Shown here: piece by piece, positions 13,589 through 14,045 of the stretch
Layout: every line of letters begins with the position of its first letter
Numbering within the stretch: the first letter of the stretch is position 1
Source of the DNA: a virus
Taxonomy: Duplodnaviria > Heunggongvirae > Uroviricota > Caudoviricetes
Direction: 5' to 3' (one strand)
DNA length: 14,514 bases
Virus record (IMG/VR): IMGVR_UViG_2713896799_000019
Program-made: the position numbers and the translations under genes
The notes under the pieces: model-generated
Databases searched by the model: none
What the model saw: only the letters and a program-made list of their open reading frames with translations
Told to the model about the DNA's origin: nothing

Positions 13589-13752
13589 AACGATAACTCC
13601 GTACATTTGAAAATTATCGCCACCTTCAGGTTCCAATCATCATGGTGGCGAACTGTGCGGGGTTGGAACTACCGGGTACGGAAACCGGCGAGCCTTTCGG
13701 CTCCCCCACACAGCCCGCCATAAATCGCGAATGTGACTGTGCAAACGATATG

Positions 13753-13772
13753 AAAAAAGACGCGGGCGCGTC
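13753..13772 (-). terminator. Candidate intrinsic terminator on the minus strand (GC hairpin followed by U6 in minus-strand RNA)
   Basis: Plus strand reads aaaaaa-gacgcg-gg-cgcgtc. On the minus strand this is a hairpin followed by TTTTTT. Confidence 0.45.
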
Positions 13773-13859
13773 TCATATCGCTCCGTAAACATCCGGGGTT
13801 CCAATCCCGACGCCAGATTTTGCTGACGCGTTGGAAATATAGCCCCGGAGGATAAAAAC

Positions 13860-14045
13860 TGTCAACGGGCAAAAAAATTTTCGTTATCAGGAATGTATAA
13901 AATTAAATCAATTGAGCAAAAAATCCTTTCTGCAAAACTAAAAAAGATTTCAATAAAATCAGGCAGTTAAAAACGCTGAAAAACGGTATAAAAAAGCATC
14001 TCAAAATCCTGTTTTTTCTTTCAGATACAATATCTTATTTGATTT
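13860..14045. promoter_or_regulatory. AT-rich attP P-arm-like region (candidate integrase arm-site and IHF binding region) directly next to the prophage/host junction
   Basis: About 185 bp with many A-tracts (caaaaaaatttt, aaaaaag, ataaaatcagg, aaaatcctg) and no convincing ORF. It abuts the point where ompW homology begins. Confidence 0.45.

Follow-up and report, generated by a model that had tools for sequence, protein, structure and literature searches.

The question raised by this locus is what function resides in a structured stretch without a convincing gene (13629-13860) close to the boundary of an integrated phage. The DNA analyzed, a stretch of 14,514 nt hereafter called the window, covers the right end of a lambdoid prophage residing in an Escherichia coli chromosome. 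Its plus strand carries tail genes, a Lom homologue, a tail fiber gene, and a DUF4376-domain gene (12386-12988), beyond which lie a minus-strand ORF6N gene (13588-13025) and then the flagged non-coding stretch. Outward of the latter follow approximately 170 AT-rich bases, a 3' fragment of ompW (14039-14176), and yciE, with the locus at the extreme right prophage end and adjoining attR in ompW. The RefSeq annotation of the locus holds the ORF6N gene only and leaves the RNA stretch blank; several phage entries in GenBank show hypothetical proteins, or antirepressor ORFs that have been extended, over these RNAs. Identity of at least 99% over the 301 bases around the finding was seen in 36 complete E. 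coli genomes, and 338 of 5426 genomes had a match to them. The region is very probably an antisense cassette of the P1 immI type for the antirepressor gene, of the same family as the Gifsy-1 isrK-orf45-anrP locus, in which a C4 RNA would repress and an IsrK RNA would counteract the repression.

The first-pass annotation had reported a 10-mer direct repeat with an inverted copy of its core, and GGTTCCAATC indeed occurs exactly twice in the 14.5-kb window (13629-13638 and 13797-13806) with the 7-mer GTTCCAA present a third time, inverted, at 13663-13669. Window-wide motif statistics were uninformative because the whole 14.5 kb was queried and a local shuffle test was therefore used instead. A direct repeat of at least 10 nt arose in 2.3% of 5000 dinucleotide shuffles of 13629-13860 and such a repeat plus an inverted 7-mer in only 0.2% of them. 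The repeat pattern alone is modestly unlikely by chance, and it is the comparative data given below that make the case decisive. The minus strand from 13830 to 13586 folded at -100.4 kcal/mol; its shuffled versions averaged -79, and none of the 200 did as well (z = -4.3). The repeated motif GGTTCCAATC also resembles a T-loop, but a tRNA-like element was rejected as ARAGORN found no tRNA or tmRNA in the window.

The minus-strand intrinsic terminator proposed earlier, a GC hairpin at 13759-13772 followed by U6 (plus-strand A6 at 13753-13758), was recovered by the terminator scan and corresponds to the terminator of an IsrK-family sRNA (Rfam RF01394; minus strand, 13753-13829) that is equivalent to the a1/b1 region of P1 immI. 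At 72.7 bits (E 2.9e-14) the match exceeded the gathering score of 50, and it covered the whole model (positions 1-77 of 77). The earlier suggestion was of a prophage sRNA of 90-150 nt on the minus strand with its end at approximately 13753; the identity as IsrK and the end at the predicted terminator support this suggestion, although the RNA would be 77 nt long (13829-13753). Its parts are hairpin 1 (13829-13810, with covariation at 6/7 pairs), hairpin 2 (13809-13794), a linker, and the intrinsic terminator (stem 13774-13757 and U-run 13758-13753 in the terminator scan), in line with the isrK architecture, in which a pair of 5' hairpins precedes a Rho-independent terminator and its U-run. As placed, the RNA lies 5' of the C4 region and an anrP-type gene, and its middle hairpin is complementary to the C4 region over 7 nt. 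A full-length match to RF03163 (c4-a1b1, family title 'a1, b1 targets of C4 antisense RNA') at 13842-13790 overlaps the first two IsrK hairpins and scored 44.6 bits, just under the gathering score of 46.7 (E 9.5e-10), compared to 49.8 bits for a 94%-identical copy (L003) and 51 bits for P1. The c4 and c4-a1b1 motifs were both listed by Weinberg et al. (2010).

Upstream of IsrK, a sigma-70-type promoter is predicted on the minus strand at 13836-13865 (TTGACA 13865-13860, 18-nt spacer, TATATT 13841-13836). The promoter scan found it near-consensus with 11 of 12 positions matched, the IsrK 5' end (13829) lies 7 nt past the -10 hexamer, and the -35/-10 pair occurs at an equal distance from the IsrK 5' end in the homologous loci, at a position equivalent to the annotated P1c4 (P51b) promoter of P1. 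No LexA box was identified at the window promoter, the nearest one-mismatch match being approximately 150 bp upstream (14009-14024). A LexA-controlled antirepressor as for Gifsy gftA was rejected on the lack of a promoter site and on a window total of LexA-like sites not above chance.

Downstream of IsrK on the same strand, with 27 nt between the two matches, a C4-family antisense RNA (Rfam RF01695) is predicted at 13641-13725; its score of 78.9 bits (E 2e-14) exceeds the gathering score of 45, and model positions 1-87 of 87 are covered. This candidate second RNA in the middle part of the stretch (13725-13641) had been overlooked by the first-pass annotation, which had nevertheless described one of its helices. 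In the C4 fold, a closing stem of 17 bp (13720-13704 with 13662-13646) encloses hairpins A (13703-13690) and B (13689-13671), of which hairpin A is the GAGCC-TTTC-GGCTC hairpin listed earlier at 13691-13704, a real structure whose position is one base off at 13690-13703. The P1 C4 RNA is approximately 77 nt long and is processed from a longer precursor, with its 5' end produced by RNase P. The window sequence is consistent with processing of the P1 type (U at -1, G at +1, and 3' GCC-A-CCA) and the annotated P1 C4 ends map to equivalent window positions, suggesting by analogy a mature C4 of approximately 76 nt at about 13719-13644. The P1 facts used throughout rest on GenBank annotation NC_005856, a secondary source (PMC8546580), and established knowledge.

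Only 55 nt separate the C4 match from the AUG (13588-13586) of the ORF6N antirepressor-family gene (minus strand, 13025-13588), whose 187-aa product matched Pfam ORF6N (1.5e-20) and, over its full length, PHROG 2379 'anti-repressor' (5.4e-90). A full-length comparison with Gifsy-1 STM2616/AnrP, likewise a 187-aa protein, gave 56% identity, and the N-terminal part of VT2-Sakai Ant matched with 59% identity. A terminator-like hairpin directly past the ORF6N stop codon (minus strand, 12993-13015; terminator scan) closes the unit, and the arrangement predicts that this is the regulated antirepressor-family gene of the cassette's operon. The repressor that the protein would antagonize is absent from the window. 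The other possibility raised earlier, a regulatory leader of the ORF6N gene, is compatible with the sRNA, as the two belong to the same transcription unit; the RNA if read through is the ORF6N leader and both descriptions are true. The window locus has no icd-like ORF between C4 and the ORF6N gene, icd between c4 and ant being a feature of the P1 operon and not of the C4 RNA family.

The statement that no plausible protein is encoded in the stretch was essentially right, with the caveat of a 31-codon minus-strand ORF of doubtful coding capacity (13721-13626) that starts at an invariant AUG at the C4 5' edge, the AUG of Gifsy-1 orf45, and is the positional analogue of orf45 without its length being conserved. 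In Gifsy-1, experiments show that translation of orf45 matters. From the invariant AUG the ORF runs for 8 to >64 codons across the loci and lacks an upstream Shine-Dalgarno sequence (SD), and in the window it ends 37 nt before the ORF6N AUG. A conserved small protein over C4 was rejected as a general feature on account of this range of lengths, and the variable length and missing SD indicate that the conserved core is RNA pairing rather than a peptide.

The direct repeat contains two copies of a target and the inverted copy is the segment complementary to them, which on sequence identifies them as specificity sites of the P1 immI type, a1 and a2 for the repeat and a' for the inverted copy. The first-pass annotation had not seen this meaning of the motifs as candidate target and antisense sites of C4. 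In the minus-strand RNA, a1 (UUGGAAC, 13798-13804) is the core of the repeat at 13797-13806, is displayed in the hairpin-2 loop of IsrK, and complements a' (GUUCCAAC, 13662-13669), a single-stranded segment between C4 hairpin B and the closing stem. Its second copy a2 (UUGGAAC, 13636-13630), the core of the repeat at 13629-13638, also lies in a hairpin loop. The second specificity is formed by b' (UCCGUAC, 13676-13682) in the loop of C4 hairpin B, to which b1 (UACGGAG, 13781-13787) in the IsrK linker and b2 (GUACGGAG, 13597-13604) are complementary, b2 including the ORF6N SD (GGAG, 13600-13597). In the alignment of P1 with the window, the equivalents are CUGUCAAC for a', UUGACAG for both a1 and a2, CACUAAC for b', GUUAGUG for b1, and GUUAGUGA for b2. 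The a2 hairpin (13618-13650) is formed by CGCCACC (13650-13644) with GGUGGCG (13624-13618), and as the CGCCA segment is shared by its 5' arm with the 3' arm of the closing stem of C4, the two structures are alternatives.

It was also considered whether the repeats might be due to chance or the module an inactive remnant at a decaying prophage end. The site by attR in ompW at the extreme right end would suit such a remnant, as would the E24377A prophage, which inward of its intact ORF6N gene carries an ORF6N pseudogene and split hydrolase genes. Against this, both RNA models were matched at full length above their gathering scores, the four target sites, promoter, and intact 187-aa ORF are all present, the segment is conserved in the 36 E. 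coli genomes described above, and the repeat pattern was reproduced in few shuffles, making a remnant or coincidence extremely improbable.

The search for compensatory base changes in related prophages that the first-pass annotation had proposed was carried out and was strongly positive. Homologues were identified by blastn in 327 phage records, mostly of Stx-converting phages, and 17 diverse phage loci were fetched in addition to P1 and Gifsy-1; the alignment comprised 19 homologous loci including P1, while Gifsy-1 was analyzed apart. Rfam matches to isrK and then, approximately 25 nt on, to C4 were found in 17 of 17 phage loci, and the pair lies nearly always directly 5' of a gene annotated as antirepressor, Ant, BRO-N, ORF6N, or similar. 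Family membership of the RNAs and the anatomy of the locus are direct observations, as is covariation, which was seen both in the stems and in the three-way complementarities of the a and b sites. The intramolecular stems were 94.2% paired over the 19 loci, and in 23 pairs both partners had changed, a result that none of 500 shuffles equaled; among these stems, the three C4 helices (4-6) were 100% paired with 14 such pairs. The a2-hairpin helix was 94% paired with three pairs changed on both sides, compared to 26-70% for slid controls.

The pairing sites varied in concert. Among the 19 loci there were 12 different a' alleles. For 17 loci, a1 and a2 were both exact complements of a', and in the remaining two a1 carried a single mismatch. 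In those 17 loci the complement occurred at precisely two places, the loop of IsrK hairpin 2 and approximately 32 nt 3' of a', the distance from a' to the downstream complement being 65 nt in an Aeromonas phage. The a1:a' pairing was 94.7% paired with 33 compensatory cells over the 19 loci and a':a2 was 93.7% paired with 30, compared to 18-50% for slid controls in both cases; for a1:a', the percentage paired, the number of compensatory cells, and the covariation score stayed below the observed values in each of 500 shuffles. In nearly every one of the 19 loci, the best match to the b' loop 3' of a2 was 6-12 nt long and either overlapped the SD or start codon of the following gene or directly preceded it. 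Cognate b'-b1 duplexes averaged -10.5 kcal/mol compared to -4.3 for non-cognate combinations, and b'-b2 duplexes -11.7 compared to -6.0, with cognate energies approximately twice the non-cognate ones at all four sites. The window has its a allele in common with phiSTEC1589 and its b allele in common with pPE4, such that the a and b specificities reassort.

These patterns bear on a reading in which IsrK is mainly a trans-acting, Hfq-dependent sRNA on host genes and the repeats near ORF6N are secondary. The family is described by Rfam as an Hfq-binding RNA and the Rho-independent terminator with its U-tail is typical of Hfq-binding sRNAs. However, the variable, covarying parts of IsrK follow the allele of the neighboring C4 rather than a fixed host sequence, and in unrelated phages and hosts the module accompanies antirepressor genes. 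A main role on host genes is accordingly quite improbable, while host-gene and C4 roles are not exclusive.

A further reading concerns the step that is controlled. In transcriptional immunity of the P4 kind, C4 would pair with a1/b1 and a2/b2 on the nascent RNA and cause premature termination, with translational occlusion not being the main effect. The layout of target copies up- and downstream of a processed RNA is the same, the analogy was raised for Gifsy-1 (PMC4825925), and b1 directly precedes both the IsrK terminator and a conserved helix bracketing this terminator. The location of b2 on or next to the SD or start codon in nearly all 19 loci nonetheless indicates control at the level of translation, repression is stated to be translational in the P1 annotation, and the terminator scan returned no terminator-like site from a2 to the ORF6N start. 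A termination-based mechanism is consequently considered improbable.

The closest characterized homologue provides genetic evidence for the proposed pairing. In the Gifsy-1 locus isrK, c4-a1b1, and C4 all score above the Rfam threshold, with the C4 match in the 'orf45'/STnc1160 region. Pairing of IsrK G28 and G31 with orf45 C162 and C159 has been proven by compensatory mutations (Hershko-Shalev et al., 2016, PMC4825925), and when these were placed by counting from the Gifsy-1 IsrK 5' end, G28 and G31 fell in a1 and their partners in a' (pairs G28/C162 and G31/C159), while A107 of the first 'orf45' AUG is the invariant AUG at the C4 5' edge. As the mutated pairs map onto a1:a', the pairing proposed here has already been proven in a close homologue. 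In addition, the downstream gene is driven by the isrK promoter, anrP translation increased >100-fold with IsrK supplied in trans, and a stable processed RNA (STnc1160) arises from the C4 region in Salmonella (PMC4825925). The term 'c4 antisense' is absent from that study, which draws the analogy with P4 instead. That Gifsy-1 'orf45' is a C4 RNA, and that the Gifsy-1 IsrK/orf45 and P1 c4 systems are the same, is strongly supported by the sequence comparison.

The Gifsy-1 authors modeled activation by alternative cis structures and orf45 translation and not by titration of a free antisense RNA, and reported that co-expression of the STnc1160 region strengthened rather than weakened IsrK toxicity (PMC4825925). 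Applied to the window, this switch would operate in cis without a free antisense RNA: the C4-like fold would be part of a silent mRNA leader held by pairing of IsrK hairpin 2 with a', and short IsrK acting in trans would open the leader, allowing translation of the small ORF and, by coupling, of the antirepressor. This is the published model for the nearest relative (PMC4825925), the small-ORF AUG is invariant with a 31-codon ORF present in the window, and the mutually exclusive a2 hairpin and C4 closing stem both covary, showing that alternative structures exist. Coupling is, however, not conserved, given the ORF range of 8 to >64 codons without an SD and the window stop codon 37 nt short of the ORF6N start. 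In P1 the 5' end of mature C4 also adjoins the invariant AUGG, the stable STnc1160 species is seen in Salmonella, and the model has no need of the conserved b'-b2 complementarity over the SD. A purely cis-acting switch is on balance rather unlikely.

In the preferred reading, a C4 antisense cassette counteracted by IsrK, a constitutive-looking promoter (-10 at 13841-13836) would be active in the lysogen and start minus-strand transcription at approximately 13829, with most transcripts ending at the intrinsic terminator to give the 77-nt IsrK. Read-through RNA would run via C4 and the leader into the ORF6N antirepressor gene, and by inference from P1 the C4 RNA (about 76 nt, ~13719-13644) would be cut from it, RNase P making the 5' end beside the tRNA-like GCC-A-CCA 3' end. 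The observed complementarities predict that C4 a' (GUUCCAAC) pairs with a2 (UUGGAAC) in its hairpin loop and b' (UCCGUAC) with b2 (GUACGGAG) over the SD; this pairing would block antirepressor translation and keep the prophage quiet. As IsrK has a second copy of both targets (a1 and b1), it would be able to bind C4 and relieve the block, and by analogy it may bind either C4 or the C4 fold inside the long RNA. Overexpressed IsrK relieves the block in Gifsy-1 (PMC4825925). For the window copy we infer that the locus is transcribed and its RNA processed, which way the regulation runs, and which biological target the ORF6N protein has.

Taken alone the finding matters little, both RNAs being curated Rfam families already, and the window copy is a further member of a known, curated system whose mechanism was worked out in P1 and Gifsy-1. 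Its annotation value lies in a stretch that is blank in RefSeq and mis-called as protein in several GenBank phage records. Of wider interest are the identity of the IsrK and C4 systems and the rich, reassorting allele repertoire. A tentative proposal, given slightly less than even credence, is that they form one machine in which an IsrK decoy titrates its cognate C4 and the reassorting a and b alleles decide which co-resident prophages of polylysogenic Stx E. coli silence or wake each other's antirepressors. Since homologues lie 5' of antirepressor genes in hundreds of Stx-converting phages, such an allele code could bear on cross-induction of Shiga-toxin prophages.

Compared to known systems, the window is similar to Gifsy-1 in the order of promoter, IsrK, C4 fold, and a 187-aa ORF6N protein (56% identity), in having the invariant orf45 AUG, and in the a1:a' pairing with a different allele. 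It differs in the a allele (GUUCCAAC in the window and ACGCCAAC in Gifsy-1) and in the b allele; in the small ORF, which has 31 codons without overlap where the 45 codons of orf45 overlap the anrP start; in lacking antQ and a Q gene upstream and isrJ downstream, with no isrJ match downstream of the window ORF6N gene even at E <= 1; and in its site at the prophage end by attR in ompW, compared to beside the Q gene. In the APSE phages of Hamiltonella, isrK and C4 are annotated together with putative a'/b' regions, and in the available part of that article IsrK is not presented as the carrier of a1/b1 (Rouil et al., 2020, PMC7313666). The likeness is an isrK-C4 pair directly 5' of a DNA-binding regulator gene, whereas the downstream protein is BRO-N and the a and b alleles differ from those of the window.

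P4 immunity was named as a structural analogue by the Gifsy-1 authors (PMC4825925). By analogy, its layout is likewise a processed RNA (CI) flanked by two same-strand target copies (seqA and seqC), but P4 acts through transcription termination. P22 immI is similar in that a small RNA (sar) keeps the antirepressor gene ant silent in the lysogen. The sar RNA is a true cis-antisense RNA transcribed from the opposite strand, unlike the window RNA and targets, which lie on one strand and pair via short loop sites. In Tyrion the cassette lies between tail fiber and virion structural genes, which is presumably about where P22 keeps immI.

The antisense work on c4 of P1/P7 immI is reportedly that of Citron and Schuster in 1990 and 1992. 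The P1 record (NC_005856) annotates, in order, promoters, a1, b1, a 77-nt c4 RNA, a2, b2, icd, and ant, with a2/b2 as C4 translational-repression sites, b2 for 'repression of icd ant translation', and the role of a1/b1 only 'putative'. The window has no icd, such that b2 covers the SD of the antirepressor gene itself and the Rho-dependent polarity step of P1 is not simply transferable. IsrK is strong in the window with a good terminator (72.7 bits) compared to a weak full-length isrK match of 35 bits in the P1 a1/b1 region, the antirepressor is an ORF6N protein rather than Ant1/Ant2, the element is a lambdoid chromosomal prophage, and no equivalent of the C1 operators of P1 was identified in the window. 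Common to the window and P1/P7 immI are the C4 fold (78.9 bits in the window and 68.8 in P1), the regulation of an antirepressor, the order of promoter, a1, b1, b', a', a2, and b2 with b2 over an SD, and an RNA and its target that come from one strand and one promoter.

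Copies of the isrK-C4-antirepressor cassette were identified at widely differing genome positions and in widely differing phage types, including the Aeromonas phage LPM4 (locus L013), Enterobacter phage Tyrion (L016; genus Uetakevirus), and APSE-7 (L004). In a P2-like phage, the cassette was flanked by tail genes, whereas in Tyrion it separated tail fibre genes from virion structural genes. Stx phages carried it in their nin region, and in the window it adjoined attR. In its distribution, the unit behaves as a mobile cassette.

The window carries an ompW 3' fragment (14039-14176) followed by yciE and therefore, the prophage was integrated in ompW. 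An AT-rich stretch of ~170 bases (13866-14038) separates the IsrK promoter from the ompW fragment and should contain attR. At the equivalent junction in E24377A (L001), the annotation gives a partial OmpW pseudogene. On the prophage-interior side of its intact ORF6N gene, E24377A has a second, frameshifted ORF6N pseudogene plus a split alpha/beta hydrolase gene (L001 1041-2263). At this side in the window (12386-13025), the ORF6N gene is adjoined by a DUF4376 gene (12386-12988), probably for tail fibre assembly, with a hairpin common to both genes (12993-13015). The prophage end is thus mosaic.

The module of "Actinobacillus phage vB_Apl-pPE4" (L003; PP818812), with the stated host Actinobacillus pleuropneumoniae, was 94% identical to the E. 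coli module, and the same record contained a hok/sok locus of enterobacterial type (Rfam sok, 121.7 bits). Assignment to an Actinobacillus host looks doubtful. GenBank CDSs cross the IsrK and C4 RNA genes at L005 1638-2780 (KU927493), L010 964-1986 (LC567819), L002 2587-2760, and L003 2482-2724. Labeled "putative antirepressor," "Ant," or "hypothetical protein," these CDSs are probably spurious or over-extended ORFs. Separately, two Stx-type phages gave Rfam matches to sRNA-Xcc1 (RF02221) shortly 3' of the gene for the antirepressor or regulator (L009 2211-2301 and L015 2242-2325), and the APSE paper (PMC7313666) likewise records sRNA-Xcc1 adjoining an ORF6N gene.

The IsrK terminator hairpin is nested inside a longer helix in the window, where 13783-13773 pairs with 13753-13743 on the minus strand, and likewise in the homologous loci L002-L019. 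The arms of the outer helix consist of ~8-11 nt immediately 5' of the terminator stem and the bases immediately 3' of the U-run. Formation of this outer helix is possible only in read-through transcripts. These arms covary among loci, as in GCGAUAUG/CAUAUCGU, GCGACAA/UUGUCGC, and GCGCAUA/UAUGCGU, with GGACA/UGUCC as the P1 version.

An AUGG bordering the C4 5' edge was unchanged in all 19 aligned loci (alignment A1 columns 121-124; window 13721-13719). The ORF opening at its AUG ranged from 8 to >64 codons depending on the locus, and continued in frame into the antirepressor gene in five loci. In the characterized Salmonella Gifsy-1 isrK-orf45-anrP locus, the AUG within this motif is the start codon of orf45, and in phage P1 the same AUGG adjoins the 5' end of the mature C4 RNA.
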